DNA from: Patescibacteria group bacterium
GTDB taxonomy: Bacteria > Patescibacteriota > Minisyncoccia > Phycocordibacterales > Phycocordibacteraceae
Assembly (NCBI GenBank): GCA_040388985.1
Contig: JAZKAU010000003.1
Span: 110,896-174,895, forward strand
Direction of reading: 5' to 3'
DNA length: 64,000 nucleotides
Made by a program: the position numbers and the translations under genes. This document shows, piece after piece, positions 8,058 through 39,323 of this stretch (its first letter is position 1; the number at the start of each line of letters is the position of its first letter). The notes below the pieces were generated by a model. The model saw only the letters and a program-made list of their open reading frames with translations. It made no database searches and was not told the origin of the DNA.

Positions 8058-8061
8058 AGAT

Positions 8062-9393: not shown

Positions 9394-9400
9394 ACGAGCA

Positions 9401-9673: not shown

Positions 9674-9693
9674 GTGGATATGCTAGCACGCGG

Positions 9694-10416: not shown

Positions 10417-10487
10417 GTCACAAAGTATAGCGCAGCGAAGGGACGCATCACGTTCCTGCGCTGTGCTATCGCGCGCGTATAGATAGT

Positions 10488-10970: not shown

Positions 10971-11012
10971 ACTTATATATAGTACTAGCGAGCGTGAGAG
11001 GCGTATGAAGCG

Positions 11013-12026: not shown

Positions 12027-12099
12027 ACAGGAAATCAGAAAATCTAGGAATTAATACCTTGAAATTCTACCACGCCCTATCTACCCATAAAGAAGCTCC

Positions 12100-12126
12100 A
12101 TATATGGACTTACGTTGTCCATATAT
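12100..12126. repeat. REP-like palindrome copy 1: ATATATGGAC-TTACGTT-GTCCATATAT
   Basis: 10-bp perfect arms, 17 bp upstream of the transposase GTG start. It is the reverse complement of copy 3. Confidence 0.75.
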
Positions 12127-12142
12127 AAGATATTAGAAATTA

Positions 12143-12844
12143 GTGAGATTTATTTTAAGGCAGGTTTGCTATATTCTTCACGTGACTCTTTTTCATGCAC
12201 TTAACCGCGGAGTTGATAAGCGAGAATTATTTCTCGACGAAGAGGATTATATACGTTTTATACATGACTTATATGTATTTAATGATGTCGAGGAGATATC
12301 ACCGAATCATCGTTTTCATACTTCATATATGGACAACGTAAGTCCATATATACGGAGTCCGCTTGTGACGATTCATGGATGGTGCTTGATGGATAATCAT
12401 TATCATTTGCTTCTATCGGAACTTGTAGAAGGAGGTCTACGCTTGTTCCTTCGACGGCTGAATGTCGGTTATGCAAAATATTTTAATGAGAAATATAAGC
12501 GTATAGGAGTGCTCTTCCAGGGAAGAACGAAGAAAATCCCGGTTAACGATGAGGCACACTTCCTGTATATCCTGCATTACATACATTTAAACCCATTAGA
12601 CTTATTGCCAGGAGCACGTGACTGGCGTACCAGGGACGGTGCGCAGATCCAAGATATGCAAGAAGCACTGGCATATCTTACGACCTACCGGTGGAGCAGT
12701 TATCTGGATTATGTAGGAACGAAGAATTTTCCTTCGCTTATTGATCCTTCGTTCTTTAATGATGCACTCGATGGCTACGCAGAATCACTCCAAGAATTTC
12801 TTTGGGATCGAGCAATCTCTCAACTTCCGTATGTGTTGGAGTAG
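12143..12844 (+). CDS. HUH Y1 transposase, IS200/IS605-family, REP-associated (RAYT-like)
   Basis: N-terminal HVTLFHALNRG, HUH motif DNHYHLLL, and C-terminal YRWSSYLDY, which resembles the RAYT WSS-Y catalytic region. GTG start (first in-frame start after a stop). The gene is AT-rich (about 40% GC) against a roughly 60% GC background. Confidence 0.65.
   Translation: MRFILRQVCYILHVTLFHALNRGVDKRELFLDEEDYIRFIHDLYVFNDVEEISPNHRFHTSYMDNVSPYIRSPLVTIHGWCLMDNHYHLLLSELVEGGLRLFLRRLNVGYAKYFNEKYKRIGVLFQGRTKKIPVNDEAHFLYILHYIHLNPLDLLPGARDWRTRDGAQIQDMQEALAYLTTYRWSSYLDYVGTKNFPSLIDPSFFNDALDGYAESLQEFLWDRAISQLPYVLE
12325..12351. repeat. REP-like palindrome copy 2 (ATATATGGAC-AACGTAA-GTCCATATAT) inside the transposase ORF, in frame (encodes ..SYMDNVSPYI..)
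   Basis: Read directly; identical to copy 3's core. Confidence 0.75.
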
Positions 12845-12856
12845 AGGTCTCAGGAG

Positions 12857-12879
12857 ATATGGACAACGTAAGTCCATAT
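12857..12879. repeat. REP-like palindrome copy 3: ATATGGAC-AACGTAA-GTCCATAT
   Basis: Starts 13 bp after the transposase stop and ends 9 bp before the giant gene's stop codon (12888); inverted relative to copy 1. Confidence 0.75.
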
Positions 12880-12887
12880 TTTAAGAT

Positions 12888-15800
12888 TTAGGATGCGGGG
12901 GAAGAGTCAGGAGTTGGTGCAGGGTCGGATGAGACTACGGGGGCAGGATCCGGTTCGGGCGCAGGAGGCGCATCGGATCCCCCGCCTACGGCAGGCGCGA
13001 GCACGCTCACGGTGCGCGTTGCTTCTGCAAAGCGGCCGCTGGCGTCAGTCGCGCGGTAGGTCAGCGTGTAATCCCCGGGGGTCTGCGCATTCACGCCGCC
13101 CGAGACCGCGATCGAGCTCGTGAGGTCGGTGCCGTCAGCGGCTGCCGCAGTCGCGCCCGGATCCGTCCAAGTCGCGCCTTGCGCGATCTGGATCGAAGAT
13201 CCTCCGGTAAGCTGTATGACCGGATCGGTACCATTCTGAGGTTGTGTCCCGGACGGAGGAGGAGTCTGCTGATCTCCCGAATTCGGCGGCGCGACCGACG
13301 GCTGCGAAGGCGGAACGTTTCCGACGCTCGCTATCTGACCCTCAGTCTGTACGAGGAAGTAATCGAAGGATACCGGGATATCCTGCGCCTTGGCGAGCGT
13401 TATCGTGAAGCTTCCCTGCTCCTTCTTCGAGATGTACCAGGAACCATCGATTGAGCTCGTGAAGGTGAGGAATATCTTGGAAGTCGGGAGAACGAGGCTG
13501 TTCTCGACCTTGAATTCGGTCTGGCCGTTCGGAATCACGACGGATCCGGCGCTTGCCGTGCCGTTGCTATCAGCACTCAGTACGAGCTGATGCGTGACGA
13601 TGGTCGTGAACTGCGCGATACCGTCATGCACGATGATACCGAGCTCCTCGAGCAGCTTCTCGAGTCCGGAAGCCGCGATGCTGAGCGGGCCGGTGGCGCT
13701 CGTACTCGTAGCGTTCTTAGCTGTCTCGAGAAGGGCGAGGCGCGACTCAAGGTCGTCGATACGCAGTGCGAAGGTGTCGAAGCGTGCGCTCAGCGCCTGT
13801 ACGCCAGCGACGCCGTAGCTTGCGAGCTTGTAGAGATCCACGTTCGTAGCGCTATCGGTAAGGACTTCGTCGGGCAGCGTCACGCTGATAGTCGTCGAGC
13901 CGTACGCGAACGTCGTGGCGTTCGCCGGCACGATGTAGCGGGCAGCCGATACGGTGCCGTCGGCGTTCACGCTCTGCGCGTGCAAGGTGCCTGCAGATAC
14001 GCCTTGCGCAATCTCCATGCTCGCAGCCGTCACGCTCGTAGCCACGAGCTCATGCGGGAGCTGCGCCGCCGCCTGCTCGGCGGTCGCCTTGCTCTCGACG
14101 CTATCCAGGCGGACCGCGAGGCTTGTGAAGGAACTCGCGAAGGAGTCAGTCCTGCCAGCGAGCTCCTTGATGGCGTTCACGCTCGCGGCGATGATAGGAC
14201 GGTCGGCAAGCGTGAGGAACCCCCGGCTGTCAGTTGCCACGGCTTCAGGAATGGCCGATTGCACGTTCTGGGCGCTGAAACCGGCATACTGGCCGTTCTG
14301 GTCGAGTCCGGACGTCGCATTCCAGTGGTAGAGGATAGGTGAAAGCTTCTCTATATCCGCGAGCCCGCGCGTAAAGCTACCACTGATGTTCTTCAGCCGC
14401 TCGTCGGAGGAAGCCGTTACATTTCCTAAGTTGTCGGTCGTGAGATTCGCGCCCGCGCTCGCAAGGCCGGCGAAGCGGACCGAGCCGGTGGTCGTGAGCT
14501 GTGCGGTAGGCGTACTGGTACCGATACCGAGATTACCGGCACCGGTGAGCGTAAGGAGGTTCGCGCCGGATGAGGACGCTACGGTGAAGGGATTCGTACC
14601 CGCCGTCCCGAGCACGGTGAGGGATCCTCCTGAGGATATGCCGCCCGTACCTACCAGCAGTCCGTTGCGTATATAGAGGTCACCGCCGATGTCCCCGTTC
14701 TCGAGCACGCTCAGGGTCTGCGTATTGGCGGCACCGAAGCTCGCCGAGGGCGCTTCCATGCCATCTATATCAAGGACCGTGAACTTCGAGCCAGCGTTCA
14801 CGTACGCATACTTTCCGGAGATGAATATGCCGCGCGGATTATTCAGGTTAGTCGAATCCTGCAGCGACGTGACGACCGTAGGCGCAGCGGGATTCGAGAT
14901 GTCGACGATCGTAAAGCGGTTAGTACCGTTCGCCGAGACGTACGCATAGCGGCCTGCGACATACATGTTCTTCGGCGCGTTCAGGTTCGTGTTATCCACG
15001 ATTCCGGCCACGAGAGTCGGGGCCGACGGCGTCGAGACATCGACGACGGCGAACGAGTTCGTATTCTGACCGAGCACGTATGCGTAGCGGCCGGACACGT
15101 AGACGTCCTTTGCGTTGAGCAGATACGTAGCATTGTTGAGGGATCCGACGACGACGGGAGCGGCTGGGTTCGAGACGTCGACGACCGTGAGTCTGGAGCC
15201 GGTCGCTCCCGCCGTGGTCACATACGCGTACTTTCCCGAGACATACACAGAGTCCGGGGTCAGGAGGTTGGTAGCATCTACTATCGAGCCTGCAATAACC
15301 GGCGTAGTCGGATTCGAGATGTCGACGACGACGAGCGCGTTCGCGCCGTTCGCGGCGACATACGCGTAGCGGCCGGAGATATACAGGCCGCGCGCAGAGT
15401 TAAGGAGCGAGTTAGTTACGGAGCCGACCACGGCAGGAGCGGCAGGATTCGAGACGTCGACGACCGTGAACCTATTCCCGCCGGTAGCGGTCACATATGC
15501 ATACTGGCCCGCAACGCGGACGGTGAATGCACCGTTCAAGTTGGTGGAGTCGACGACCGAGCCTACCACAACGGGGGCAGACGGGACTGCGATATCGATG
15601 ACGGACAGCTTGAAACCGCCAGCCGCGTCGACCGAGTACGCGTAGCGGCCGGAGATAGCCACGCCGATGCCGTTCGTACCGCTCGCTATGCTCACCGTGC
15701 CTTTCACGGTAGGGACTGTCGAGACGGTCTGGAGATAGCTGCCTCCAGTGAGCGCGAGGCGGGTTGAGGGGGTCGAGGTACCGATTCCGACGTTCCCGGA

Positions 15801-18800
15801 ATCGAGGACAGTCAGGAGCGGCGTATTGGATGAGTTCGTAAGCTGGAAGTTCGCAGCAGTGGTCGTTCCCACGCCCTTGACCGAGAGCCGGGCGAACGGA
15901 GAGGTCGTTCCCACGCCGAAGTTACCGGTGGTATCGAGGAAGATAGAGGAAGTCGCCGTGAACGTATTGGTAGCGCTGAAGTAGCCGAGCTGGCCGGTGG
16001 TACCGGTCAGGAGAGCCTGCTTATTGTTGAACGTGATCCAGTCAGCTGCCGTAAGGAAGCCCTTGGTGGTCGAGGCGGCGGCCTGGCCGTTGGCGTAGTC
16101 GAGCGATATGAGACCTGAACCGTTGTCGTTGAAGTCGGCGGCTAGGAAGGTTGCCGCTCCCTTGGTGGCGCCGTCTGCCACCGCGTTGTTGATACCGAGC
16201 GCGCCTCCGGTGAAGGTGAGCGGGCTCGATACCGTCGCGTTGCTGAAGCCGCCCGAACCGTTTCCGTAGAGGAGTGAGGAGCCGGTGGTGGCGGGGGCCA
16301 AGCCCAGGGAAGTGGTGGAGACCGAAAGCGCGCCTCCGACATTCGAAAGTCCGCTGCCAAGCAAGCTGGTGAAGGTGGAGCCTCCCAGGGTGAAGTTGGT
16401 CGTAGCTTCGTTGGTAGTCGTAGCGCTTGAGGCAGTGAGCGTGCCGAGCGTGGTGGCTCCTGAAACGGTGAGATTAGTCGTCGACGCATTCCCCAGACTG
16501 GTCTGGCCCGACACCGTAAGACTCGTGAGCGTACCCACGCTCGTGAGACTTGAGTTGACGACATTCGCGGCGAGCGTCGTACCCGTGAGCGTTCCTGCCG
16601 GAGCCACCACCGCGTTCGTGGAGACTGCGGTGATGAGGCCCTTGGCGTTGACCGTGAAGCTCGGGATGGCGGTGGATGAGCCGAAGGAGCCTGGGGTTGC
16701 GTTGACAGTGGCGAGGGTGAAAGTTGCGGAGCCCGGGCCTGTGGCGGTGCCGTCACCCGTGAGTGCGGTGATGTAGTTGCCGGATGCTTGGAAGCCGAGG
16801 GTTGAAGTGGCGACCCATTGAGGCGGAGCTCCTGCACCGAAGGACTGCAAGACCTGGCCTGAGGTGCCGGCTTGGCTGTTGAAGAGTGCGGCACCTGCCT
16901 GCGTGATCTCGAACATGCTGGCATTGGTGGATGAGGATACGCGGAACGGATTGGTTCCCCCGAGGCCCGTGACCTGCAGAGTGGTTGCAGGGGTAGTGGT
17001 GCCGATGCCGACAGAGCCCGCAAAGTAGTTGATGTCTGAGGTGCCCGCCGCATACACGCCATATCCGTTGGTCACGCCAGTGATCTTCTGCGCCTGCGCA
17101 TACAGGCCGTATGCATTCGTCACAGTTCCTGACGTTATCGTAGGAGTACGTCCGACCACTCCATATCCGTTGGTTATCGTTCCACCTCCGAGGATACGCA
17201 CACTAGCGATCGCTCCGTATGCGTTTGTCACGGTACCCGCGTTACTGACTTGTGAGTTTCCATCAAATCCGGTGGCGCCTCCGATCCCCGTATTCGTGAC
17301 CTCGAACGCAGCACCGTAGGTCATGCTCGAAGTGTTGAAGACGGTAGAGTTCGATGAAGAAAGTAATGCAACGGAAGTGCTGTTACTGCCGTTACCAATA
17401 ACGAGGTTTCCGCCGAGCTTAACATTGCCCGCCGCGACATGAAGAGCCCACGCGTTCGTAATCGTTGTATTGGTGCTCGCAAGCGGTGCGTTCGCTATAT
17501 AGAGAGTAGAGGCATCCGTAAGAGTAACCGGGCTCGACGCGACGAGCGTCGGCCTTCCGAAGGAGCTCGCGGCGCGCGTCGCGATAGTGCCAGAACCTGA
17601 GGTGTCTGTGAGCGTACTCGCATCTACCGCGAGGTTGAGGCCGGTTGTCGTCCATGAGGCTGCAGATTTCGCGCCACCGATATTCAAAAGTGCGGCAGGT
17701 GCGATAACTCCGATTCCGACATTCCCCGTACTAGTGACCGTAAGCAGTCTCGCCTCCGTAGAAGAGGCAATGGCGAATATATCTCCCGTGCCTGCGGTTC
17801 CGGTAACGGCAAGTCTTGCCGACGGCGTACTCGTCCCCACTCCCACATTCCCTCCGCTCGTGATGGAGAGTCGCGTGGTATTGCCCGTGATGAGATTCAG
17901 CTGGTTGCTGTCGATGGTGCCGAGCGTCGCTGTCGCTCCGAATGAGTTGCCTCCTTGTTTGAAGTAGGTGGTGTCGAGTGCAAGAGATGATGTTGAAACA
18001 GTGAGAACTCCTGCAGTATTGGTAAGACCGGTACCAAGAAGTGATGTGAAGGTCGAACCACCGAGCGTGAAGTTGGTCGTAGCTTCGTTGGTAGTCGTAG
18101 CGCTTGAGGCAGTGAGCGTGCCGAGCGTGGTGGCTCCTGAAACGGTGAGATTAGTCGTCGACGCATTCCCCAATGTGGTCTGGCCAGAGACCGTGAGCGC
18201 CGTGAGGGTACCGACGCTTGTGAGGCTCGAGTTCACGACGTTCGAAGCGAGCGTGGTCCCGGTCAGCGTCCCTGCTGGAGCCACCACCGTACTGGTGGAG
18301 ACCGCGGTGATGAGGCCTTTGGCGTTGACCGTGAAGACTGGGATGGCAGTTGAGGAGCCGAAGGAGCCTGGGGTTGCGTTGACAGTGGCCAAGGTCGCAG
18401 CAGCTGAGCCGGGGCCGGTCGCGGTGACGTCACCGGTGAGTGCGGTGATGTAGTTGCCGGATGCTTGGAAGCCGAGGGTTGAGGTGGCGACCCACTGGAT
18501 ACCGGTGCCGGTGGTCTGGAGGACTTGGCCGTTTGTTCCAGCTGAGGTGTTGCCCGCGTACAGAGCTCCAGTGAGGCCGATGTCGCCTGCCACCGTGAGC
18601 GTGCGTCCAGGGGTGGTGGTGGCGATGCCGACGTTGCCAGCTGCAGTAAGTACCATTGCAGCATTTGATGTGGCACCAATAAAGAGATTGCTTGAGTAAC
18701 GAATACCAAGGTCGGTAGCCGCAGAGCCTGTGAAGTACGCAGATGCGCGACCGAAGTTCTGAACTGAAGCGCCAAGTGCGGAAAGTGAAATAGTTGGGAG

Positions 18801-21800
18801 TACCGATGCTGTACCACTATCAATATGGAGCTGAGTAGAGGGTGTCGTCGTCCCGATACCGACGAGACCTGCCTGAGTGATAGTTACTTTGTCAGTACCT
18901 GCGGTCTGCAAGCGAAGGTTCGCTGTTCCTCCTGCTGAGAACGTAGAGTTTATATATGCGCCACTCGCGTCTGCTCCGAGCTTAATGAGATTATTCCGGC
19001 CGGCCACAGCATCGTAGAGCGTCAACGTGCCTCCCGAACCGATAACGGTTGCAATGTTTCCATTTACATCAAGTTTGTTTGTAGGCGTCGTAGTACCAAT
19101 GCCGAAGTTTCCTGTCGAAGTGAGGTATGCCTGATAGCTAGTCGCGCCGGTAGCATATGCAGTATTCCCGCCCGTAAGTCCGATTCCTCCGAAAGCGCTT
19201 ACAGAAAGGTCACCCGTTGCCCCTGTGCTTTGACGTGTGAGCGAGAACATCCCCGAACCTGCTCCATTGTCTGCATAAATACCCTGCCCTACGCCTATTG
19301 CTGATAATCGCAAGTTACCGGCAGATACATTGAGCTTATCCGCAGGCGTCGTCGTCCCGATACCGACGAGACCTGCGCTTGAGATATACATCTGCGAAAC
19401 ATCGTTCATACGGAAATCGAGCGCCCCGCCGGTCGGCCTGTTAATGAACAGTGACGTACCCGCACTATAGAAGTTCGCACTCCCTGTCGCGAGCGAGCCG
19501 CTAAGCGATATGGCTCCGTAGGTGGAACCTCCTCCCCATTCTCCTATCGCTACGTTTCCTGTTCCTGATCCTTGAACTATGAGCTTGCTTCCAGGAGTAC
19601 TCGTCCCCACCCCCACATTCCCTGACGTATCGATCGTGAGACGCGTGGCGTTGTTGGTCTTGAACTGCAGGAGGTTCGAGTCGTTCGTACCGAGTACAGC
19701 CGTCGCCCCAAAGCTGTTCCCTCCCTGCTTGAAGTAGTTGGTGTCGAGTGCCAAGGATGAGGTGGAGACGGTGAGGACACCTCCTGAGTTGGTGAGACCC
19801 GTACCGAGGAGCGAGGTGAAGGTCGAGCCTCCCAGGGTAAAGTTCGTTGTCGTGAGCGATGTGGTCGTTGCAAGAGCAGCGGTGAGGTTTCCAAGAGTTG
19901 TAGCTCCTGAAACCGTAAGCGCAGTGAGGGTACCGACAGACGTGAGCGAAGAAGTAACAACATTAGAGGCAAGCGTGGTCCCGGTCAGCGTGCCCGCCGG
20001 AGCCACCACCGCGTTCGTGGAGACTGCGGTGATGAGGCCCTTGGCGTTGACCGTGAAGGTCGGGATGGCGGTGGATGAGCCGAAGGTGCCGGGGGTTCCG
20101 TTGACGGTGGCCAGCGTCGTGGCGATCGAGGTGGTGCCAGAACCGGTGACGTCACCCGTGAGAGTGATGGTCTGGTTGCCGGTGAGGTATGAGACGTTGG
20201 AGGCTGCGGTGACGAGGCCTTTGCCGTTCACCGTGACGTTGTTGAAGGTGCCCACGTTTCCGTTGACGGTGGCAAGCGTGAAGGCGGCTGAGCCGGGGCC
20301 TGTAGCGGTGCCGTCACCGGTGAGTGCGGTGATGTAGTTGCCGGAGGCCTGCTTCCCGTTGAACGTGATCCAGTCAGCTGCGGTGAGAAAGCCCTTGGAG
20401 GTAGAGGCGGCTGCCTGGCCGTTGGCGTAGTCAATTGAGATGTTGCCGGAAGAGGCGTCAAAGTCGTTAGCGTTGAAGGAGGCTGCACCCTTGGTTGAGC
20501 CGTCAGCGAGCGCGTTCGCGATACTGATGGTATTTGATGAGATAGAAAGCGGAAGAGTCGCGCTGGTGATGCGATTCTGATACGCAGTCTCCCAGTTCGT
20601 GGTGGAAGCAGTGAGCGGTATATTGTATCCACTCGTTAGAGAGAAGACACCTGTGCCTGAGGTATACGTGAGACCGGTAGCGGTTGAGGAGAAGAGACCG
20701 CGGACCGTAGAGGAGTCGAGCGTGAGCGCACCACCTGTGTTCAGGAGCCCGGTGCCAGTGAGGTCGGTAAAGGACTCGCCGTTCACGTTGATGCCGGAGG
20801 AGAATGTAGCGAGGCCGGTAGTGAGCGAGGTGCTACTCACGAGCAACGTGCCAGCGATGATGCCATTGCCACCGACCGTAAGAGCCTCCGATGCGGTAGT
20901 GGTGCCGATACCGAGATATCCGTTTCCATCGATGCGCGCACGCTCCACGCTACCTGTACTGAAAGCGATCACGTTCGCCGTCGGGTGTCCGATACCGGTA
21001 GACAGATCCCCGGTCCACGTATAGGAAGGAACGGAAGCTGACGAACCGATGGAACTCACGAGCTGGCGCGCGGTATTGATGCGCAATGCTTCCGTATTAT
21101 TCGTCTCGAAGACGAGCGCATTGCCGTCATTGGTGCCGAGCGTCGCGGTCGCTCCGAATGAATTACCATCTTGCTTGAAGTACGTGGTGTCGAGAGCGAG
21201 GGATGAAGTCGAGATGGTAGCGGTAAGCACGCCTCCCACATTGCTGAGCCCGCTGCCAAGCAAGCTCGTGAAGGTCGATCCGCCGAGCGTGAAGTTGGTG
21301 ACGCCGAGATTCGTGGAAGTGGCGCTGGTGAGGGTGGTGTTGCCGAGCGTAGTCTGGCCTGAGACCGTCAGGTTAGTCGTCGACGCATTCCCCAATGTGG
21401 TCTGACCCGACACCGTGAGACTCGTGAGCGTACCCACGCTCGTGAGTGAGGAGTTCACGATGTTAGAGGCAAGCGTGGTGCCGGTCAGCGTTCCTGCAGG
21501 AGCCACCACCGCGTTCGTGGAGACTGCAGTGATGAGGCCCTTGCCGTTGACCGTGAAGGTCGGGATGGCGGTGGAAGAGCCGAAGGTGCCGGGGGTTCCG
21601 TTGACGGTGGCCAGAGTGAAGGTTGCGGAGCCCGGGCCAGATGCTGTTCCGTCACCGGTGAGTGCGGTGATGTAGTTGCCTGCTGCGGCGAAGCCAAGTG
21701 TACTGGTACTCACCCATTGAATTCCTGTGCCGGTGGTTTGGAGGACTTGGCCGTTTGTTCCGCGGGTGCTATTTCCGTCGTATATGCCACCGCCGCTCAC

Positions 21801-24800
21801 TGAGAGGTCACCGACTACCGTGAGCTTTGCGAACGGGGTGGTGGTGCCGATGCCGAAGTTACCCGCAGACGTGAGCGTAGCACGTGTACCGCCATTCGCG
21901 CGGAAGATAAGGTTATTACCGTTGGAGCCAATACCTTGGCCGTTTGCAGCTGTAGAACCGCTGTCTGCGAGCATGAGGTATGAGAAGGTATCGGTTGATT
22001 GTATCTGCGCCAAGGCTTGTGCCGAACCATACACATGGAGTGCTGCTGACGGGCTCGTAGTACCAATACCGACGTTGCCACTTGAGGTATTGAACACAAC
22101 CTTGTCGGTACCATTCACATCAGCAATCGAGACAACGTTCGGTGCAAAATAACGGAACTGACCTCCAGAAACACCACTTGAAGATAGCTGTAAGAATGAA
22201 TCGTTTGCGGTACGATCGATGGTTATGCCGGCTTGGCTTCCCGCAATCGTAAGAAGTGAACCCGGAGTGGTAGTACCGATACCCACGTTGCCGTTATCGA
22301 GCACCTCAAAAGCATTTGTAGGCGTTCCATTTACGTCTGAGGCTATCCGGAATAGTGAGCGCCCCACCTCGGCCGCTTTTGAAGCGAAATAAACCATCGG
22401 CGCAGTAGGATCGGTCCAGCCATCTACCTTAAAGGAAGATGCGCCTGTAGAAGCTCGATATACCTCGAGATTTGAAGTTGGAGAGGTAGTACCGATACCG
22501 ACGTTGCCACTCGTATCGATGGTAAGTCGCGTGGTGTTGTTGGTCTTGAACTGCAGGAGGTTGCTGTCGATGGTACCGAGTACGGCTGTTGCACCAAATG
22601 AGTTTCCGTTCTGCTTGAAGTACGTACCATCAAGACCAAGCGCGTTTGACGTTGTGGCGACAGAAAGAGTTCCTGCAGCAAATGAAAGACCCGTACCAAC
22701 TGTTGCATTGCTGAAGCCACCCGTTCCATTTCCATACAGAAGGCTGTTGCCGGTGGTAGCACCTGCAAAGCCGAGGGTGCTGGTACTCACCCACTGAATT
22801 CCTGTGCCGGTGGTTTGGAGGACTTGGCCGGTGGTTCCGCGGGTTGCGTTGTTGTCATAGATTCCTCCTCCACTAATTGAGAGGTCACCGACGACTGTGA
22901 GCTTTGCAAAAGGAGTGGTGGTGCCGATGCCGACGTTACCAGCAGCAGTGATCCTGAGCCTCTCGGCTAGGGCGCCTGACGAATTCTGCGTTAAGAATGT
23001 AAGCGCTGTGGGTGCTGCAATGCCAGCGTAATCCGCACCGTCAGCGACGACGTTTATATTGGCGACTTCACGGTTGATCAAGGAAGAAGCATCGGAGGTG
23101 TAGAAACCGATCTTTGCGACCGTATCTCCATTTACTACGGCAGCGCTCGTATTGCCTATAGCAATCTGGTTCGAACCCGTTGCTCCAGCGATCGACAACA
23201 GAGATATCGGCGACGAGGTACCAATACCGACGTTGCCAGCACCAGTTATACGCAGCTTCTCTGTAGACGCAGAAGCCCCAAGACCACTATTGGTGTAGAA
23301 GGCCAGGTTGCCTGTGCTACCAGCAGCATCTGTTACGCCAGCAATGCGTGCGTAGGCATTAGCCGCCGCTCCAGCGTTAGCTGAACCGGCGTACCAGTCG
23401 ATTGAGTGCCCCGCATTCACGGCACTTATTCCTCCTTCTATGCGTAGCGCCCCTGATACCGTACTTACAGAGCCATTGTTTATATCAAGCTTAGCTGCAG
23501 GAGTCGTTGTGCCGATACCGACGTTGCCACCCGTCTTTAGAGTAAGCAGGTCACCAACTCCCTGCTGGTCGTAGAAACGCAGGTCGCCAGAGCTTGCTGG
23601 GTTATAGATATTCCAATACGAAATATTATCCTTTGCGAAGCTGAGCGTCTTTGCCGCTGAAGCTGGGCCATCGATCCTGATTACCGGAGTCGCTGCATAG
23701 ACATGCAGCGTTGTACCTGGTGATGTGGTGCCAATCCCGACGTTGCCCGCACTCGTGACAGAGAGCCGTGTCGTATTGCCCGTGATGAGATTCAGCTGGT
23801 TGCTGTCGATAGTACCGAGCGTCGCCGTCGCCCCGAATGAGTTGCCTCCTTGTTTGAAGTAGGTGGTGTCGAGTGCGAGTGACGAGGTCGAGACGCTGAG
23901 AACTCCTGCAGTATTGGTAAGTCCCGTGCCAAGGAGCGAGGTGAAGGTTGAGCCGCCGAGAGTGAAGTTCGTTGTCGTGAGTGATGTAGTCGTTGCGAGA
24001 GCAGCGGTGAGGTTTCCAAGAGTGGTTGCGCCAGAGACCGTAAGCGCCGTAAGGGTACCGACCGAGGTAAGGGAGGAGTTCACGACGTTAGACGCAAGCG
24101 TCGTACCCGTGAGCGTTCCTGCAGGAGCCACCACCGCCACTGAGCCTGCTGCGGTGATGAGGCCCTTGGCGTTGACGGTGAAGGTCGGGATGGCGGTGGA
24201 TGAGCCGAAGGAGCCTGGGGTTGCGTTGACAGTGGCGAGGGTGAAAGTTGCGGAGCCCGGGCCTGTGGCGGTGCCGTCACCCGTGAGTGCGGTGATGTAG
24301 TTGCCTTGAGCCTGGTACTGAGGGATGTTGAGGACGTTTGCAGTGAGGGTGGCGGCTCCAGAGGTACCGGTGGTGGTGAGTGAGGTGATCCTGTTCTGGT
24401 ATGCGGCCTCCCAGTTAGTGGTGGAGGCGGTGAGCGGGATGGTGTATCCAGCGGTTAAGGAGAAGACACCGGTACCTGCGGTGTAGGTGAGGCCGGTCGC
24501 CGTGCTTGAGAACAGGCCGCGTGCAGTCGTCGCGAAGTCAGAGATAGTCGCAGCAAGCTGCGTACCTGTGTGGTTCGCGCGGTTGAGGTAGTAGGTGCCG
24601 TCCTGGCCGTCGAGGAGGTCGGCGTTGAAACCGGAGCCGCTTCCGGAGAAGGAGGTGGTCGAGACCGACAGAGCTCCGCCGGTATTCACGAGACCGAAGC
24701 CGGTGAGGTCGGTGAGGTAGTCGCTCCCTACGCCAAGCGTAGTCGCATACAGCGAGGTAGTGGTCGCGTTCGCAGCCGTGAGGTTGCCGGTCGCGGATAT

Positions 24801-27800: not shown

Positions 27801-30800
27801 GTGAAGTATCGAAAGGGGTGATGTAGTGCCAATCCCCACATTCCCTCCACTCGTAATAGAGAGGCGTGTCGCATTGCCCGTGATGAGGTTCAGCTGATTG
27901 CTGTCGATGGTGCCGAGCGTCGCCGTCGCCCCGAATGAGTTGCCTCCTTGTTTGAAGTAGGTGGTGTCGAGTGCGAGGGATGATGTTGATACGGTGAGAG
28001 TACCACCAACGTTGCTGAGTCCCGTACCAAGGAGCGAGGTGAATGTTGAACCACCGAGAGTGAAGTTTGTGACGCCGAAGTTAGTAGAGGTGGCGTTCGT
28101 CGTCGTACCGCTGGTTGCAGTGAAAGTAGAGAGTGAAGTAGCTCCTGAAACCGTAAGCGCAGTGAGCGTACCGACAGACGTGAGTGAAGATGAAACAACA
28201 TTGCTTGCAAGTGTCGTGCCGCTAAGTGTTCCTGCTGGAGCCACCACCGCGTTCGTGGAGACTGCGGTGATGAGGCCCTTGCCGTTGACGGTGAAGGTCG
28301 GGACTGAGCTGGCACCTCCGAAGATACCCACGTTGGTGTTGACTGTGGCCAGGGTAAAGGCGGCTGAGCCCGGGCCAGATGCTGTGCCGTCACCCGTGAG
28401 TGCAGTGATGTAGTTGCCTGAGGCTTGGAAGCCGAGGGTTGAGGTGGCGACCCATTGTATGCCGGTGCCGGTGGTTTGGAGGACTTGGCCGTTTGTTCCG
28501 CGGGTGCTATTTCCGTCGTATATGCCGCCGCCGCTCACTGAGAGGTCACCGACCAGAGTGAGCTTTGCAAACGGGGTGGTGGTACCGATGCCGATGTTGC
28601 CCGAACTATTAATCGTCATCTGCTGTGCACCGCTGGTATTGAAACGTATCACGCCGTTACCAACGGTAATGGAGTTGTTAGAGGTGTAGGAAAGTATTGA
28701 ACCACCCGCATTACTAAGACTAAGAGATGGATTAATTGTATCGCCATACAAGAATCCTCCTGTTGAAAGAGCGATGTTGCCCGCTACGTCTAGCTTCTGG
28801 CTTGGAGTGGTGGTGCCGATGCCGACATTGCCATTATCAAGAATTGTAAACAATGCTGTATCCAAAGAGTTTGTGGTCTGGAAGTTTGTAGTAGCCGACG
28901 TGTTTCCAAGACCTTTTACAGTAAGACGTGCGAACGGCGACGTAGAGCCAATACCTACCTGTCCACCTGTGAGGAAACTCATTATTTCGGTTTGCGTACC
29001 GTTAGAGGCTGTTCCCGTAATCGAACCTCGATAGAGACCGCCCGAGTTAGATCGAATTCCATATCGTATAGCATCTTGTGCTACCGCTGATCTAGAGAAA
29101 CTGATTCCTTGATCTACGTTAATTGCACTCGGAACACCGACTGTTAGAAGGTAGTTAGGAGTAGTTGTCGCAATACCGACGTTGCCTGTAGTTGAAATCC
29201 AAAGCGCAGAAGAGGTGGACGTAGGACTGATCGACGAGCCGCCCAGACCAGGTGTAAAGCCGATGCCACCAAATGCTGCTATCTGTAGTGAGGCAGAGGA
29301 AACGTCATCCTTGCGTGAGAATCCGAATAGTCCAGAACCGTTGACTGGATTAACAGCGCTAATAAGCGGTGATGCAGAACTTATGCGGAGATTACCCGCC
29401 ACATCAAGTTTATCGCTTGGCGTGCTGGTACCAACTCCCACATTCCCTCCACTCGTGACAGAGAGGCGCGTCGCATTGGCCGTGATGAGATTCAGCTGAT
29501 TAGCGTCGATAGTACCCAGAGTAGCGGTTGCACCGAAGCTGTTCCCTCCTTGCTTGAAGTACGTGGTGTCGAGTGCCAAGGATGAGGTGGAGACGGTGAG
29601 GACGCCTCCTGAGTTGGTGAGACCCGTACCAAGGAGCGAGGTGAAGGTCGAACCACCGAGCGTGAAGTTAGTGACACCGAGGTTGGTGGAGGTGGCGTTC
29701 GCGAGACTTGTATTCCCTGAGACCGTGAGACTCGTGAGCGTACCAACACTAGTGAGTGAGGAGTTCACGACGTTAGACGCAAGCGTGGTGCCGGTCAGCG
29801 TTCCTGCAGGAGCAACCACCGCGTTGGTTGAGACTGCGGTGATGAGGCCCTTGCCGTTCACCGTGAAGGTCGGGATGGCGGTGGATGAGCCGAAGGTGCC
29901 GGGGGTTCCGTTGACGGTGGCCAGCGTCGTGGCGATCGAGGTGGTGCCAGAACCGGTGACGTCACCCGTGAGAGTGATGGTCTGGTTGCCGGTGAGGTAT
30001 GCGTTGGTGTCGACCGAAAGAACACCTGAGGAATCCGTCTTAACGAAGCCTGCGGTCGCGAGATTTGAGAGCGTAGTGATGTTCTGAGAAGTGTTTACGT
30101 TGAAGCTGCCTGCGGAATACGTGAGGCCGGTGCCTGCGGTGGTGGTAGCGACCCACGTCGGAATGCCGGCGACAAGCGCGAGGACCTGGCCGTTAGATCC
30201 GGGAGTCGTCGTCGCAAGCGCTGACGAACCATTTCCATAAAGGACGGCTCCAGAAGTGATAGTGGACCAGCCGGTGCCGCCATTTGTCACTGGCAAGACG
30301 CCCGAGACCTCGGAGCCAAGAAGTACGTTGCTTGCTCCGACGACACCGCTTGAGGCGTGAAGGACGCCAGTCAAAGAGCCGAGGGTGACCGTACCTGCGG
30401 TAGTGATGCCGCCACTAAAGGTCTGGAGAGCGCTCCAAGAATTGGCGCTCGTCGTGCTCACGATGAGCGGGATGTTGAGGACGTTTCCGGTAAGCGTTGC
30501 CAGGCCGCCTGAGCCGTTCGTGGTAAGAGACGTAATTCTATTGGCATACGCAGTCTGCCAGTCAGTCGTGCTTGCGGTCAAAGGAATGGTGTAGCCGCTC
30601 GTAAGGCTGAAGACGCCGGTGCCTGCGGTATAGGTAAGGCCGGTGGCGGTTGAGGAGAAGAGGCCGCGTGCGGTTGTGCTGAAGTCGCTGATGGTTGAAG
30701 CAAGCTGCGTACCGGTGTGGTTCGCGCGGTCGAGGTAGTAGGTGGAGTCCTGGCCGTCGAGGAGGTCTGCGTTGAAGCCTGAGCCGCTTCCGGAGAAGGA

Positions 30801-33800
30801 GGAGGTCGCGACGGAGAGGGTGCCGGTGGTGAGCGTAAGGCCGGTGCCCAGCGTGACGGAAGAGAGCTGCTTGGCGCCATTAGCGTAGGTAAGAGTATTT
30901 GCCGTAAGGCCGTTGTCGATAAGCTGGCCGAACGTACCCGTACCTGAAATGAGCGCATTGCCGCCTACTGAGAGCGCTGCCGAAGGACTCGTCGTCGCGA
31001 TGCCGAGCCTCGTCGAGATATACTCCTGTCCACTCACTTCGAAGATGCTGTTAGTGGTCGAGGTCGCATTCGTCCCCACGAGGAGTACGTTCGAAGTATC
31101 GATAGGGTAGATCAGATTTGTAGACGTAGCGAAGACGCCGTCGCCGCTGCCGCCGGCTCCTATCGTCTGATCGATTCCCCAAGCCGGGAATCCAGCCTGC
31201 ACTTTCAGCACCTGCCCGGAAGAACCGACCGGAAGCTTCGCGAGGACCCCGCTGTTATCGGCATAGAGGATATCGCCGGGACTATAGCTCGCGAAGCCGG
31301 TGCCTCCGTTTGCGCTCGGGAGCGTGCTCGTCACGTCGGTCGAGAGATCGATGAGCGCGGTTCCCACCGTTCCGGCAGTAGCCTTGAGGAAGCCGGACAA
31401 AGAACCGATGCTGAGCGAATTCACGTTCGCAGCCCCGGTGGTCGTGAGACTCGCCGCTGATACCGAGCCTGAGATTGCGGCGTTGCCCGCAACCGTAAGA
31501 CGTTCCGGAGGCGAGGTGGTGCCGATGCCGAAATTCCCGTTGGTAAGGAACGTTGCGACCGTCGCATTACTCGTAATGATATTGAGCGGATTGACGTCCG
31601 TAGTGCCGAACCTTGCCGTCGTACCGAAGGCATTTCCTCCCTGCTTGAAGTACGTGGTGTCGATCGCAAGCGATGAGGTGGAGACGTTGAGCGTGTTCCC
31701 TGTCCAGGTTAGGCCCGTACCTGCGGTGATGCGGGTGGAGGGAGTCTGGTAGAAGGAGTCCCAGTTGGTGGTGGAGGCGGTGAGCGGAATGGTAAAGCCG
31801 GGAGCCACCGAGAGCGTGCCCGCGCTGAAGGCAAGCGGTGAAGAGACGGTGGCAGCACCCACAGTCCCGTTATTTCCATACAAGAGACCTGAGAGTGAGC
31901 CGATGGTGAGATTAGTCGTCGACGCATTCCCCAATGTGGTCTGGCCAGAGACCGTGAGACTCGTGAGCGTGCCAACACTAGTGAGTGAGGAGTTCACGAC
32001 GTTGCTTGCGAGCGTCGTACCCGTGAGCGTTCCTGCCGGAGCCACCACCGCGTTCGTGGAGACTGCGGTGATGAGGCCCTTGGCGTTGACGGTGAAGGTC
32101 GGGATGGCGGTGGATGAGCCGAAGGAGCCTGGGGTTGCGTTGACAGTGGCGAGGGTGAAAGTTGCGGAGCCCGGGCCTGTGGCGGTGCCGTCACCCGTGA
32201 GTGCGGTGATGTAGTTGCCGGATGCTTGGAAGCCCAGGGTACTGGTGCTCACCCACTGTATGCCCGTGCCGGTGGTTTGGAGGACTTGGCCGTTTGTGCC
32301 TGCTGAGGTGTTGCCGGCAAAGAGGGCGCCGGTGAGACCGAGGTCGCCTGCGATGGTGAGGGTGCGGCCGGGGGTGGTGGTGGCGATGCCGATGTTGCCG
32401 CCAAGGAACACTCCGGCTGGCCCGCTACCGTTCTGCTGTATCAGGAACGCAGTACCGGACGAAGTTGATGATGCAGAGAGTTGAGCTGAAGGAGTTGTTG
32501 TCCCGACGCCAAAGAATCCGGTAGCAGCATCGAATCTAGCCATTTCGGACGGCGTAGCACCAAATCCATAGAATGAGATGTTTCTCCCTGCACTTGCACT
32601 CGTATTGATAATGCGTAGGTTTGTTTGATTCGCCTGTAAGTACGCAGTATTAGCGGTTACTCCAACAGTATTAGCGGTATATGCCGTTCCGACTGAACCA
32701 AGTGTAATTCCTACACCGGCTGCGCTCTGTGCCGTAATCACCGGACCCGAGTTTGTACCGTTCAAGAAGTTCATTACTAGAATTCCCCTTTGAGAGTTTG
32801 CTGCTAGAGAGATACCTAAGCCATGTCCTGAAAGCGTCGTCGTACCTATCCCGACACCCGTGGTGGTAAAGATGTCACCGCTTACAGAAAATAGAGACTG
32901 CGGCGTACTCGTCCCCACCCCCACGTTCCCTGACGTGTCGATCGTGAGACGCGTGGCGTTGTTGGTCTTAAGCTGAAGAGCGTTGTTGTCGATGGTACCG
33001 AGTACAGCCGTAGTACCGAACGAGTTCCCGTTCTGCTTGAAGTACGTAGTGTCGAGCGCAAGTGATGAGGTGGAGACGTTGAGCGTGTTCCCTGTCCAGG
33101 TTAGGCCCGTACCTGCGGTGATGCGGGTGGAGGGAGTCTGATAGAAGGAGTCCCAATTAGTCGTGCTTGCAGTCAGAGGAATGGTGTATCCGCTCGTGAG
33201 CGAGAACACGCCGGTGCCTGCGGTATAGGTGAGGCCGGTGGCGGTTGAGGAGAAGAGGCCGCGGACCGTAGTGGAGTCTAGGGTGAGCGCACCACCGGGG
33301 TTCAGGAGTCCGGAGCCGAGCAGGCTCGTGAAGGTCGAACCCCCCAGCGTGAAGTTAGTGACACCGAGGTTGGTGGAGGTGGCGTTCGCAAGCGTGGTGT
33401 TGCCAGACACCGTGAGACTCGTGAGGGTACCCACGCTCGTGAGTGAGGAAGAGACCACGTTGCTGGCAAGCGTGGTACCCGTGAGCGTTCCTGCAGGAGC
33501 CACCACGGCGTTCGTGGAGACTGCAGTGATGAGGCCCTTGCCGTTGACCGTGAAGGTCGGGATGGCGGTGGAAGAGCCGAAGGTGCCGGGGGTTCCGTTG
33601 ACGGTGGCCAGCGTCGTGGCGATCGAGGTGGTGCCAGAACCGGTGACGTCACCCGTGAGAGTGATGGTCTGGTTGCCGGTGAGGTATGAGACGTTGGAGG
33701 CTGCGGTGACGAGGCCTTTGCCGTTCACCGTGACGTTGTTGAAGGTGCCCACGTTTCCGTTGACGGTGGCAAGCGTGAAGGCGGCTGAGCCCGGGCCTGT

Positions 33801-36800
33801 GGCGGTGCCGTCACCGGTGAGCGCGGTGATGTAGTTGCCCTGAGCCTGGTACTGAGGGATGTTGAGAACATTTGCAGTGAGGGTGGCGGCTCCAGAGGTA
33901 CCGGTGGTGGTGAGTGAGGTGATCCTGTTCTGGTATGCGGTCTCCCAGTTAGTGGTGGAGGCGGTGAGCGGGATGGTGTAGCCGCTCGTGAGGCTGAAGA
34001 TGCCCGTGGAATTGTCATACGTGAGGCCGGTGGCAGTCGAGGAGAAGAGGCCGCGTGCGGTTGTGCTGAAGTCGCTGATGGTGCTCGCGAGCTGCGTACC
34101 GGTGTGATTCGCGCGGTTGAGGTAATACGAACCGTCCTGGCCGTCGAGGAGGTCGGCGTTGAAGAGCGAGCCGGAGCCTGAGAAGGAGGAGGTTGAGACG
34201 GAGAGCGCCCCACCAACGTTCGAAAGTCCGCTGCCGAGCAAGCTGGTGAAGGTTGAGCCGCCGACATTAATGCCTGACGTGAATGTCTGCAGTGCGCTCC
34301 ATGTGTTCACGCTCGTCGTGCTCACGATGAGCGGGATATTGAGCACGTTGCCGATAAGCGTGGCGAGACCACCTGAGCCGTTGGTGGTAAGGCTCGTGAT
34401 CCGATTCTGATACGCTGTCTCCCAGTTAGTAGTCGAAGCAGTGAGCGGGATGGTGTATCCGGGAGTCAGGCTGAATACTCCCGTAGAGTTGCTATAGGTA
34501 AGGCCCGTCGCTATCGAGGACAAGAGACCTCGTGCGGTCGAGGAGAAGTCGCTGATGGTACTCGCAAGCTGGGTTCCGGTGTGATTCGCGCGGTTCAGGT
34601 AATACGAACCGTCCTGGCCGTCGAGGAGAGCTGCATCGCCGCCGGAGAAGGACGTGGTAGCCAGACTGAATACGCCGGTCGAATTGTCATAGCTGATCGG
34701 TCCGGTTGCGCTCAGCAATCCGCGCAGGTAGGAATCCGAGGCTCCGTTCAGCGTGTTGCCGCTCCACGAGAGATTCGTTCCAGCCGTGATGCGCGATGAT
34801 GGCGTCTGGTAGAACGAGTCCCAGTTAGTAGTCGAAGCAGCGAGCGGGATGGTGTAGCCGGGCGTGAGAGAGAAGACGCCGGTGGAACTTGCGTACGAGA
34901 GGCCGGTGGCGGTTGAGGAAAGCGCACTGCGTGCGCGCGCGTCGGTGTAGTACAGATTGGAACCTTCCGCGAGATTAGTCGTGGACTTGGTAGTAAGCCA
35001 GGTATCTGCAGAAGTAGTAGAGAATGAATTGCCGAGGAAGTATGTGGAGTCGAAGCCATCGAGAAGGTCGGCGTTGAAGCCTGAGCCGCTTCCGGAGAAG
35101 GAGGTAGTGGAGACCGACAGAGCTCCGCCGGTATTCACGAGACCGAAGCCCGTGAGGTCGGTGAAGTAATCGCTTCCGATTCCCAGGATCGTCGTAAAGA
35201 GAGAGGTAGTCGTAGCCGAATCTGCAGTAAGATTCGTCACCGCTGCGTCGGTACCCGTGATATGCGTGGCGAACAGGTTGGTGCTCGTAGCATTCGTACT
35301 CGTCGCGTTGGTGAAGGTCGCATTAGTCGCCGTCAGATCCGCGATCACGGCCGTGGTGATATTCGCGAGCGTCGCCGTGAAGGAACTGAGTACGGCATTC
35401 AGGATAGTGCCGGTCGTCGCGAAGAAGTTCGTGGTGGTCGCATTCGTAGTCGTCGTGTTCCCGAATATCGCATTCAGCGCCGAGAGCGTATCGAAGCTGC
35501 CGGAAGTAGCGTGCAAGAGCGATGCGAAGAGATTCGTAGACGTCGAATTCGTGAAATTCGAATTAGTGCCCGAGAGGTTCGTGATGGCGCCATTCGTGCT
35601 CGCGAGATTCGGAAAAGTGGACGTCGCCGTCGTCGAAGCTGCCGTGAAATAGGGCGCGCTGACCGCGCTGCCGGAAGAAAGATTCGAGACCGTAAGCGTT
35701 CCTGCGGTAAGGGTGCCGCTTACCGTGAGATCACCCGTGACGCTCGTCGTTGCGAGAGACGATGCGCCTGCAGCAAGCGTTCCGGTCGTCGTTGAACCGA
35801 TGGTCGCCGTGTCTGCGGTCAGGTTCGTGAACCGAGCATTACCGCTCTGGATATCGACATTCGTGAGCGTCGCGCCGTCGCTTGATACGCCGCCCCCTGA
35901 ACTGCTTCCGCCTCCTCCCCCGCCGCCACTTGGACGATTACGTAGCGTCGCGTCGATGCTCTCCGTCACGAAGGGGCGCACGATAGCGAGAACCGCTTCT
36001 TCCGAAAGCGCACCGATGACGCTCTGCGGGAAGAGATTCTGAACGATATTCTGGATGACCGTCGTGTGCGATACAGAACTCACAGACGTCGAAGCCGCAT
36101 ATGACGCCGTATCCGCAGGAGTGAACGCTACGGTATTGGTCTGACCGAACGGTACGACAGACAGGCCTGGCGCCAGGCTCGGCGGCGTTACCGCGCCCGC
36201 GATCGCACGGATACCGGTATCGATGAGCGAGCGGGCGAGCCGGGATCCGCCGATGAGCAGATGTGCGAGCGCTCGCTCGAGCGAAGCGGGCACTGACGTG
36301 AGTGCGCTCGCTGCGAGCTGGCTCGATGCCGCGTACCCGCTCCCTGAAGCCTGTACCGCGCTTGCAAGAGCGCCAGCTCCTACATGCGCCCTGGGCGACA
36401 CTACGGCGACAGTCACATCTGCTGCTTCATAGAGATTTGCGCCTGCTTCGCCACCATGCTCGATGAGCGCGAGATACTGCGTGCCGATGTTCTGAACCGG
36501 TTCAAGAAGCGCCTGACCGCTCCGGACTTGAGCTGTCGTGACTGAACCTACAAAGGCGAGCGATGAATCCGTCCACGTCTGCGCAAAAGAATCATTAGCT
36601 GCAGCAAGCATGGACGGCGCGTCCGCTGCAGTGGCGCCCACGGCCTGTCCTGCTACATACACGTAGCCGAGCAGTTCGCCCGCGACGCGCGGCGACGCGT
36701 CAGTCCATGCGTAGACTGCCTGCGCGTACGCAGCCGTAAGCGAGTCAGCGTAACGCGGCATCGACACCACGGTGTCGCGCGCAGAAGCTGCAGTCGCAAG

Positions 36801-38277: not shown

Positions 38278-38309
38278 TTAAAATAGAGACGAATTCGTCT
38301 CTATTTTAA
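38278..38309. terminator. 32-bp perfect palindrome TTAAAATAGAGACGAATTCGTCTCTATTTTAA (bidirectional terminator-like)
   Basis: Read directly. Located 48 bp downstream of the 38357 stop of the HTH-TM gene and flanked by A/T runs. Confidence 0.55.
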
Positions 38310-38319
38310 TAATTATTGT

Positions 38320-39262: not shown

Positions 39263-39323
39263 GCAGTAAGTATATACGTTTCTCGTCTCGTTTGGAGTAG
39301 GTTGTTCACACAACAAGAAGCGT

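Follow-up and report, generated by a model that had tools for sequence, protein, structure and literature searches.

In Helicobacter pylori, the gene cagY, a single open reading frame (ORF) encoding a surface-exposed protein, contains an exceptional number of direct DNA repeats, and recombination between them gives in-frame products, with deletions and duplications that change the size of the protein (Aras et al., 2003; PMC2194252). The MAT fibres of Bdellovibrio bacteriovorus, a bacterium that lives on other bacteria, are chromosomally encoded, phage-tail-fibre-like surface proteins; the name stands for mosaic adhesive trimer, and the mosaic combines common fibre segments with binding domains that vary (Caulton et al., 2024; PMC10769870). 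Giant genes of Omnitrophota and giant repeat-rich adhesins correspond to very large predicted extracellular proteins of episymbiotic or predatory bacteria, whose repeats fragment assemblies (bioRxiv 10.1101/2023.11.21.568195). Here we describe a gene that shares features with each of these systems. It occupies positions 12888..37664 of the minus strand in a stretch of 64,000 nucleotides (hereafter the window; contig JAZKAU010000003.1, assembly GCA_040388985.1) from a Patescibacteria group bacterium, and consists of one uninterrupted ORF of 8,258 codons (24.8 kb, 58% GC) which carries long exact DNA repeats. We propose, with a probability of about 0.7, that these repeats represent copies of four conserved structural modules within a single giant fibre gene, kept alike by recent intragenic recombination (gene conversion and unequal crossover).

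By analogy, cagY is the closest documented mechanism. In cagY, short repeats crowd into two regions of a type IV secretion component, whereas the repeats of the window gene are modules of 170-320 nt, spaced at 1.4-2.6 kb and separated by diverged inserts, and the protein is tail-fibre-like; moreover, size variants have been demonstrated for cagY, whereas for the window gene they are only a possibility. For the proposed host-contact fibre, the nearest analogy would be the MAT fibres, which share with the window protein an S74 domain with the SDxxxK motif and a recurring loop motif of the VG..P...L type. MATs are encoded by 21 separate genes, measure about 1,000 aa and consist of a signal peptide, a conserved 130-aa N-domain and a single tip, whereas the window protein has 8,258 aa with about ten internal units in a single polypeptide, an HTH_17 domain and a membrane segment at its N-terminus, an LVIVD propeller before the S74 domain and about 450 aa beyond it. 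Phage fibres and tailspikes with an S74 domain, such as K1F endosialidase and T5 pb1, resemble the window protein in this domain (above the Pfam threshold here), in its Ser/Lys motif, in the matches of the giant protein to PHROG tail-fibre families and in the presence of one of its modules in phage fibre genes. In contrast to these, the window gene is chromosomal, with housekeeping neighbours and no phage genes nearby; it is 5-10 times longer, its product is predicted to be membrane-anchored rather than attached to a baseplate, and its S74 domain is not C-terminal, whereas classical fibres release about 150 C-terminal aa. Finally, the Omnitrophota proteins are much larger (30,000-85,000 aa) and contain HEAT, dockerin and TPR domains and enzymes instead of tail-fibre modules.

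Long near-identical repeats inside the gene had been reported in an earlier note on this DNA, and we checked them by ungapped comparison, by an exhaustive search for exact direct repeats and by BLASTN. Within the ORF, 77 pairs of direct repeats are exact over at least 30 nt, 34 of them over at least 40 nt and 11 over at least 100 nt. Together, these 77 pairs cover 4,623 nt, i.e., 18.7% of the gene, and all lie between 16390 and 35150 of the minus strand; the six longest measure 323, 218, 200, 157, 142 and 136 nt (Table 1). In the 26.3 kb of control DNA to the right of the gene (37665-64000), the longest exact direct repeat has 18 nt, so the repeats are far above chance. The exact tracts are embedded in longer BLASTN alignments of 70-92% identity. 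The spacings of all 34 pairs of at least 40 nt are multiples of three, and crossovers between these copies would keep the frame.

The pairs listed in the earlier note held up, with slight shifts in position. The regions 21361..21690 and 26010..26340, given as identical, share 323 exact nt and 98.5% identity over 330 nt (second coordinate off by 4), and 20041..20340 is indeed close to 33541..33840 (98.3% over 300 nt, 218 nt exact; coordinate off by 3) and to 29881..30000 (142 nt exact; coordinate 30 nt off). The pair 24100..24300 and 32014..32214 is in the right register, with 95.0% identity and 157 exact nt, and 26329..26510 is 100% identical to 32215..32396, inside a 200-nt exact tract. The similarity is thus, as claimed, one of nucleotides and not only of protein repeats with diverged codons, since exact tracts reach 323 nt. 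A 50-mer said to recur three times was found at 16770-16820 and 18447-18497 (one mismatch each) and at 28407-28457 (two mismatches), its true length being 51 nt. Two antisense ORFs to which the note had drawn attention (21415..21675 and 26068..26328) are identical, a trivial consequence of identical DNA; the copies show a pN/pS of about 0.36 in the minus-strand frame, which identifies this strand as the coding one.

Searches with phmmer and HMM profiles resolved the repeats into four modules, A, B, C and D (Table 1). The usual order is D-A-B, and about ten such units alternate with diverged inserts of 200-450 aa. These inserts have no nucleotide-identical partner in the gene, and the repeat-free stretches measure 430-1,400 nt. 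One of them, 26514-27815, contains repeated NTAIG/NVGIG...AL motifs that resemble the head repeats of trimeric autotransporters, and several of its best homologs (at most 57% identity) are located on metagenome contigs of 30-50 kb. Module A also occurs as two half-copies (20187-20351 and 33684-33848), each directly ahead of a full A copy and 162 nt apart from it; the two half-copy units share the 218-nt exact tract, which suggests that a partial tandem duplication was itself copied between units. Scans against Pfam and NCBIfam detected no family for modules A-D. The module A profile matches 7,172 cluster representatives at E<=0.001 (604 at E<=1e-30), often several times per protein and up to 27 stretches within one protein. 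It also matches the 'baseplate wedge initiator' of the Pelagibacter phage HTVC008M. The closest relatives of module A (at most 82% protein identity) are small fibre proteins of 150-476 aa, some of them with Mtd_N, Gly_rich_2 or S74 domains.

The cores of the A copies (100 codons) differ by a mean proportion of synonymous differences (pS) of 0.365 and of non-synonymous differences (pN) of 0.131, yet they contain tracts of 100-323 nt with zero differences and abrupt ends. In a Sawyer-type permutation of polymorphic sites, performed on ten aligned 330-nt units, the longest identical run had P<=0.0005 in ten pairs; the global P is dominated by one nearly identical pair, hence we relied on the pairwise values. 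The nearest partner shifts along a unit: the copy at 31.9 kb is closest successively to those at 18.1, 29.7, 16.5, 24.0 and 26.0 kb. The clearest case of mosaicism is a D-A unit (26011-26510) that forms a perfect chimera. Its segment 26011-26333 matches 21358-21680 of the 21.4-kb unit at 100% identity and the 31.9-kb unit at 85%, whereas 26311-26510 matches 32197-32396 of the 31.9-kb unit at 100% and the 21.4-kb unit at 61%, which places the crossover in a zone of 23 nt (26311-26333).

Codon usage at identical residues points in the same direction. The same codon is used at 69% of these residues among the window copies, versus 36% between the window and L003, a syntenic ortholog in which GAPDH, RpiB and Rpe follow the giant gene, and 40% among the three A copies of L003 itself. 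The closest pair of A copies between the window and L003 has 73% nucleotide identity, under the within-window mean of 80%, and a phage homolog of module A (on contig L104, see below) has about 82% protein identity to it and only about 70% DNA identity. The mosaic tracts, the chimera and the codon sharing of 69% versus 36% argue for gene conversion or unequal crossover and not for protein-level constraint; as this sharing is lineage-specific, the units would have been homogenised or amplified after the split from the lineage of L003. The repeats thus point to past homologous recombination within the gene. It is very improbable that the identity arose without recombination, by purifying selection and codon bias acting on ancient duplicated modules or by selection on the antisense ORFs: the protein sequence of module A is very conserved across thousands of proteins, and the composition of the gene is strongly biased (its product is rich in T, G, S and A, with zero Cys), both of which speak for this reading, but the difference-free tracts amid a high mean pS, the low DNA identity of the homologs and the excess of codon sharing within the genome all stand against it, and the permutation tests reject a random distribution of differences.

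The same repeats raise the question of the assembly, as the earlier note had warned of collapse and of a true gene that could be longer; they do disrupt short-read assemblies. A contig of the Logan collection, L001 (SRR26324622), is 100% identical to window positions 7949-16419 (8.5 kb) and stops exactly 30 nt into the first exact repeat (16390-16495 = 18067-18172), as a de Bruijn graph with k=31 would if this repeat has two contexts in the reads. Therefore, the repeat at 16390-16495 appears to be real by independent evidence, which concerns this one repeat only. Among 52 loci homologous to the C-terminal region of the protein, the ORF runs off the contig end on the repeat side in about half, and studies of giant genes report the same fragmentation (bioRxiv 10.1101/2023.11.21.568195). 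We regard it as quite unlikely that the assembly is substantially wrong, with an order or number of units, or identical tracts, produced by mis-resolution, collapse or a homogenising polish, and with a different true length and layout. Such errors would be favoured by the six exact repeats of 136-323 nt, which are at or over the length of short reads and typical k, and by the fragmentation of short-read assemblies of the same organism at this gene; moreover, any mis-join at a repeat stays in frame, so that an unbroken ORF says nothing about whether the units stand in the right order. On the other hand, the repeats sit between unique flanks, and the chimeric junction is shorter (23 nt) than the usual k-mers of assemblers, which would not make that join. 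In addition, the break of L001 reflects two contexts of the first repeat in independent reads, its complete identity over 8.5 kb indicates an accurate consensus there, and similar long repeats are present in homologs from other assemblies (exact intragenic repeats of 329, 274, 260, 150 and 125 nt).

The comparison with homologous genes places the window gene at one extreme among the loci examined. Repeats cover 0-10% of the others, versus 18.7% here, and the number and spacing of the D-A-B units differ between L003 and the window gene. The N-terminal 560 aa have a single database homolog, from Candidatus Paceibacterota, whereas the C-terminal 1,009 aa have homologs at the 52 loci mentioned above, nearly all of which are titled as Patescibacteria, as Candidate Phyla Radiation (CPR)-type or as unclassified metagenome-assembled genomes (MAGs). 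The giant protein follows the pattern of patescibacterial tail-fibre proteins, with HTH_17, tail-fibre repeats and a C-terminal S74 domain, with or without Ig-like domains. Relatives with HTH_17 and S74 (and Ig-like) domains, e.g., P0281, P0301 (same Pfam set) and P0373, are annotated as 'tail fiber domain-containing protein' and occur in Nomurabacteria, Kaiserbacteria and other Patescibacteria; the listed ones measure 0.9-2.6 thousand aa. Owing to the multiplication of its D-A-B units, the window protein is about three times as long. This putative host-attachment fibre family is widespread in Patescibacteria and uncharacterised.

The gene would thus encode a membrane-anchored surface fibre of an ultra-small bacterium of the Paceibacteria type, built from phage-tail-fibre-like parts, in which diverged inserts are interspersed among about ten conserved 'shaft' units of the D-A-B type and which ends in an LVIVD propeller and a self-cleaving S74 chaperone. 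Short-tract gene conversion among the units would produce the mosaics (concerted evolution), and unequal crossover would lead to gain and loss of whole units, which were probably amplified in this lineage. The minimum homology for RecA-dependent exchange is usually cited as about 25-30 nt, and 77 tracts here have at least 30 nt; the recombination is presumably of the RecA type and probably still going on. Since all copies lie in one reading frame, each event would leave the ORF intact, and the number and order of units can drift fast over evolutionary time. The process is an ordinary one, as the concerted evolution of modules in large surface proteins is well known, in an unusual protein.

The earlier note had suggested that homologous recombination could vary the number and order of modules in a phase- or antigenic-variation-like manner. 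The first part agrees with the mosaic tracts, the chimera and the different module number and spacing in L003; for the second, a programme of phase or antigenic variation, we found no evidence. It is nevertheless worth weighing a dedicated, high-frequency system similar to cagY, in which recombination between repeats yields subpopulations that differ in number, order or combination of inserts, with altered fibre length or host-binding repertoire. This possibility adds frequency and adaptive use to the preferred explanation without contradicting it. The many exact pairs with spacings in multiples of three, the cassette-like layout of conserved units flanking diverged inserts, the mosaic as a record of repeated past events and the different layout of L003 are all compatible with it, and cagY, with the same features, gave size variants in single hosts (PMC2194252). 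However, an in-frame spacing is automatic for copies within one ORF and gives no evidence of design, and we retrieved no population variants. Exact-protein look-ups of the flanking genes found only two conspecific contigs, L001 and L002; both come from independent assemblies and agree with the window at 100% identity over the overlap, but neither spans a repeat. Look-ups with the upstream gene, GatB and P0123 found no further contigs, a metagenome scan with the unique insert gave a best identity of 57%, and a protein search for variant fragments gave none above 79% identity. We therefore consider such a dedicated system unlikely.

Known mechanisms of programmed variation were also examined. 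Long simple-sequence repeats, homopolymers of at least 7 nt and tandem arrays are absent from the whole gene (the only tandem repeat consists of two copies of 24 nt), as are inverted repeats and any 20-mer in common with its reverse complement, so that slipped-strand and invertible-element phase variation were rejected. A diversity-generating retroelement (DGR) was rejected for the absence of a reverse-transcriptase domain among the 20 largest neighbouring ORFs, which also include no invertase, and a shufflon or invertase system because the required sequence features are absent from the window. Silent-cassette conversion of the pilE/vlsE type was rejected because no module copies that could act as donors, i.e., no silent cassettes, are present outside the ORF in the 64-kb window, although donors may lie beyond it. 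We consider it rather doubtful that the gene is a self-contained combinatorial array, in which near-identical D-A-B 'recombination linkers' separate about ten different host-binding inserts and RecA-type exchange deletes, duplicates or swaps these in frame at appreciable frequency. If so, an ultra-small episymbiont whose genome is minimal could alter both its host specificity and the length of its fibre with no need of retroelements, invertases or silent cassettes, in a one-gene counterpart of the cassette exchange of phage tail fibres.

Returning to the fibre whose modules would be homogenised by recombination, its predicted domain order is HTH_17, membrane segment, about ten tail-fibre-like units, LVIVD propeller, Peptidase_S74 and Ig-like domain. 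The N-terminus consists of the HTH_17 domain, which is predicted to be cytoplasmic and is also recorded in the family members P0001, P0281 and P0301, one hydrophobic segment and a lineage-specific region. The hydrophobic segment (aa 122-140), with MRTRVH before it and AYA|S after it, could act as a signal-anchor; alternatively, with translation starting at M116, it could belong to a cleavable signal peptide. With this start (37302-37319), MRTRVH, the hydrophobic core and AYA|S would form a canonical cleavable Sec signal peptide, a layout which suggests that the helix-turn-helix (HTH) part could be dispensable or that an alternative start is used. The likely topology has the HTH domain in the cytoplasm, a single membrane pass and about 8,100 residues outside.

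The rest of the protein argues for a fibre. S74 domains are a mark of trimeric phage fibres and of the prey-recognition fibres of Bdellovibrio. PHROG tail-fibre families match the giant protein at E=8.6e-31, and a PDB sequence search gave weak matches to the Bdellovibrio MAT fibre proteins 8ojn_C (E=5e-4) and 8ond_A (Bd2133; E=2e-3), over about 90-160 aa only. The LVIVD region has six units with a period of about 138 nt. In the S74 domain, the motif S7753-D-E-R-L-K7758 (SDERLK), read directly, fits the SDxxxK definition of the Ser-Lys dyad (PMC10769870). The motif xG[IV]G[TS]xxPxxxL, which resembles the capping-loop motif of S74 and MAT fibres (PMC10769870), occurs 34 times, the last occurrence lying 40 residues ahead of the S74 serine. 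Taken together, these features suggest a trimeric, S74-processed host-attachment fibre. In the model of Bd3182, a fibre of 781 residues (a 922-aa protein cleaved at S782) measures about 550 Å (PMC10769870); with a similar length per residue, the fibre would be several hundred nm long.

One such part is also present in the same metagenome on L104 (JAWVHB010002877.1, GCA_040384165.1), a 37-kb phage contig encoding a SU10-type capsid and an HNH endonuclease, whose region 10001-11236 encodes P0031, the 411-aa fibre protein with module A. This phage possibly infects the bacterium of the window or its host. A recent transfer of module A from L104 to the chromosome was rejected, in view of the DNA identity of only about 70%.

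Several observations weigh against our proposal of a host-attachment fibre with recombining modules. Recombination is read from a pattern, and recent segmental duplication followed by point divergence could yield part of the identity, though not the switching of partners; furthermore, the three A copies of L003 are not homogenised, which indicates that conversion is not uniformly active in the family. The window comes from a metagenome assembly with independent support for one repeat boundary only, and repeat mis-resolution or short-read polishing could have created or sharpened some of the identical tracts. The S74 domain is not at the extreme C-terminus, as it is in classical cases: 506 residues, including the Ig-like domain, separate its serine from the end of the protein. 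An AlphaFold2 monomer model of D-A-B, from an alignment of 129 sequences, has low confidence (pLDDT 67), and Foldseek gave no match to this model below E=2 in the PDB; a poor monomer model is expected for a piece of a trimeric fibre. Lastly, it is domain homology alone that suggests the function in attachment.

To our knowledge, the means of host recognition and attachment is unknown for most Patescibacteria (CPR), beyond a few cultured Saccharibacteria. In these, pili and adhesins are essential. A genome of the Paceibacteria type that devotes 24.8 kb to a single fibre composed of phage-tail-fibre parts, with conserved shaft units homogenised by recombination while the inserts between them diverge, puts this family forward as a concrete candidate for attachment to hosts and as a possible site of fast host-range evolution. 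Since such genes are systematically broken, or possibly mis-ordered, in MAGs from short reads, their size, copy number and prevalence are likely underestimated in public genomes.

Table 1. Modules, exact repeats and domains of the giant gene. Positions refer to the window; (-) indicates the minus strand.
Feature	Position	Residues	Remarks
Module A		~107 aa	GNYITALTGDG...VVAPAGTL...; 10 full and 2 half copies
Module B		~84 aa	FTLGGSTFTSLLG...YFKQGGNSFG...GNVGIGTTSP (C-terminal end GNVGIGTTSP); 9 full (>65 bits) and 1 partial
Module C		~93 aa	FNADLLDGQD...HTGTQ (FSGSGSGFNADLLDGQD...HTGTQ...); 5 full and 4 partial
Module D		~57 aa	GNIGIATTTPGRTL...GTNGQVLQTTGTGIQW; 7 full and 1 partial
HTH_17	37476..37625 (-)	aa 14-63	Pfam PF12728, 29.4 bits (cut-off 27)
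Hydrophobic segment	37245..37319 (-)	aa 122-140	sole strongly hydrophobic segment; hydropathy scan and direct reading
Module A half-copy	33684..33848 (-)	aa 1273-1327	tandem partial duplication; repeat family D3
Module A copy 1	33366..33680 (-)	aa 1329-1433
Module A copy 2	31908..32228 (-)
Module A copy 3	29679..29993 (-)
Module A copy 4	28113..28427 (-)		most diverged A copy
Module A copy 5	26022..26342 (-)
Module A copy 6	24006..24314 (-)
Module A copy 7	21369..21686 (-)		identical to A copy 5 over 323 nt
Module A half-copy	20187..20351 (-)	aa 5772-5826	repeat family D3
Module A copy 8	19881..20183 (-)
Module A copy 9	18147..18467 (-)
Module A copy 10	16470..16790 (-)
Module B, first five copies	32901..33116, 31509..31724, 29418..29669, 27816..28067, 23718..23969 (-)
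Module B, next four copies	22479..22712, 21069..21296, 19593..19844, 17823..18074 (-)
Module B, partial copy	16290..16397 (-)
Module C copies	34788..35099, 34383..34652, 33906..34184, 30519..30797, 24372..24650 (-)
Module C, partial copies	33117..33278, 25707..25913, 20556..20759 (-), 31725-31844
Module D copies	32229..32399, 28428..28601, 25284..25454, 22767..22940, 21690..21863, 18468..18638 (-)
Module D copy	26343..26513 (-)		identical to D copy 32229-32399
Module D, partial copy	16791..16886 (-)
Chimeric D-A unit	26011..26510 (-)		perfect chimera of the 21.4-kb and 31.9-kb units
Example of diverged insert	26514..27815 (-)	aa 3284-3717	no intragenic copy; outside homologs <=57% identical
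Exact repeat, 323 nt	21358-21680 = 26011-26333		register +4653
Exact repeat, 218 nt	20077-20294 = 33574-33791		register +13497
Exact repeat, 200 nt	26311-26510 = 32197-32396
Exact repeat, 157 nt	24149-24305 = 32063-32219
Exact repeat, 142 nt	20050-20191 = 29860-30001
Exact repeat, 136 nt	16661-16796 = 32099-32234		absent from the earlier note
Exact repeat	16390-16495 = 18067-18172
LVIVD beta-propeller	14799..15607 (-)	~aa 7390-7620	Pfam PF08309, 167.6 bits, 6 stretches; TIGR04312; repeat family D17
Peptidase_S74 intramolecular-chaperone domain	14238..14408 (-)	aa 7753-7809	Pfam PF13884, 35.4 bits (cut-off 22)
Bacterial surface Ig-like domain	13002..13217 (-)	aa 8150-8221	Pfam PF16403, 75.8 bits; PDB sequence matches to Ig-like domains

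The giant gene is surrounded by genes for a split transketolase, GAPDH, RpiB, Rpe, a class I aldolase, GatB, Obg, RNase J, SecA and MurB, and these housekeeping functions indicate that the gene lies in chromosomal DNA. An Rfam scan of the window detected neither RNA families nor tRNAs. The adjacent upstream gene, at 38357-39316 (minus strand), codes for a protein with an HTH domain, then an acidic linker, and a membrane segment at the C-terminus. This HTH domain and aa 12-102 of the giant protein share 32% identity (tblastn E=1.9e-6), which, together with the membrane segment, suggests that the two neighbours have an unusual 'HTH + membrane anchor' design in common. Upstream of the giant gene, the intergenic DNA contains a perfect AT-rich palindrome (38273-38314) with a 19-bp stem (GATTATTAAAATAGAGACGAATTCGTCTCTATTTTAATAATT), which overlaps promoter-like hexamers and could be the terminator of the upstream gene or an operator. 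Adjoining the 3' end of the giant gene, the ORF 12143-12844 (plus strand) is identical to the NCBI entry MES2226076.1, from a MAG titled 'Patescibacteria group bacterium', and has a weak, sub-threshold match to IS200/Y1-like transposases (E=7.7e-4). Further away, a pilin-like N_methyl protein is encoded near 8947-9510 (seen in L001), and 53287-61108 corresponds to a cluster for the biosynthesis of surface polysaccharides, with a Wzy_C O-antigen-ligase-like protein carrying TPR, a Polysacc_synt flippase and a UDP-glucose/GDP-mannose dehydrogenase.

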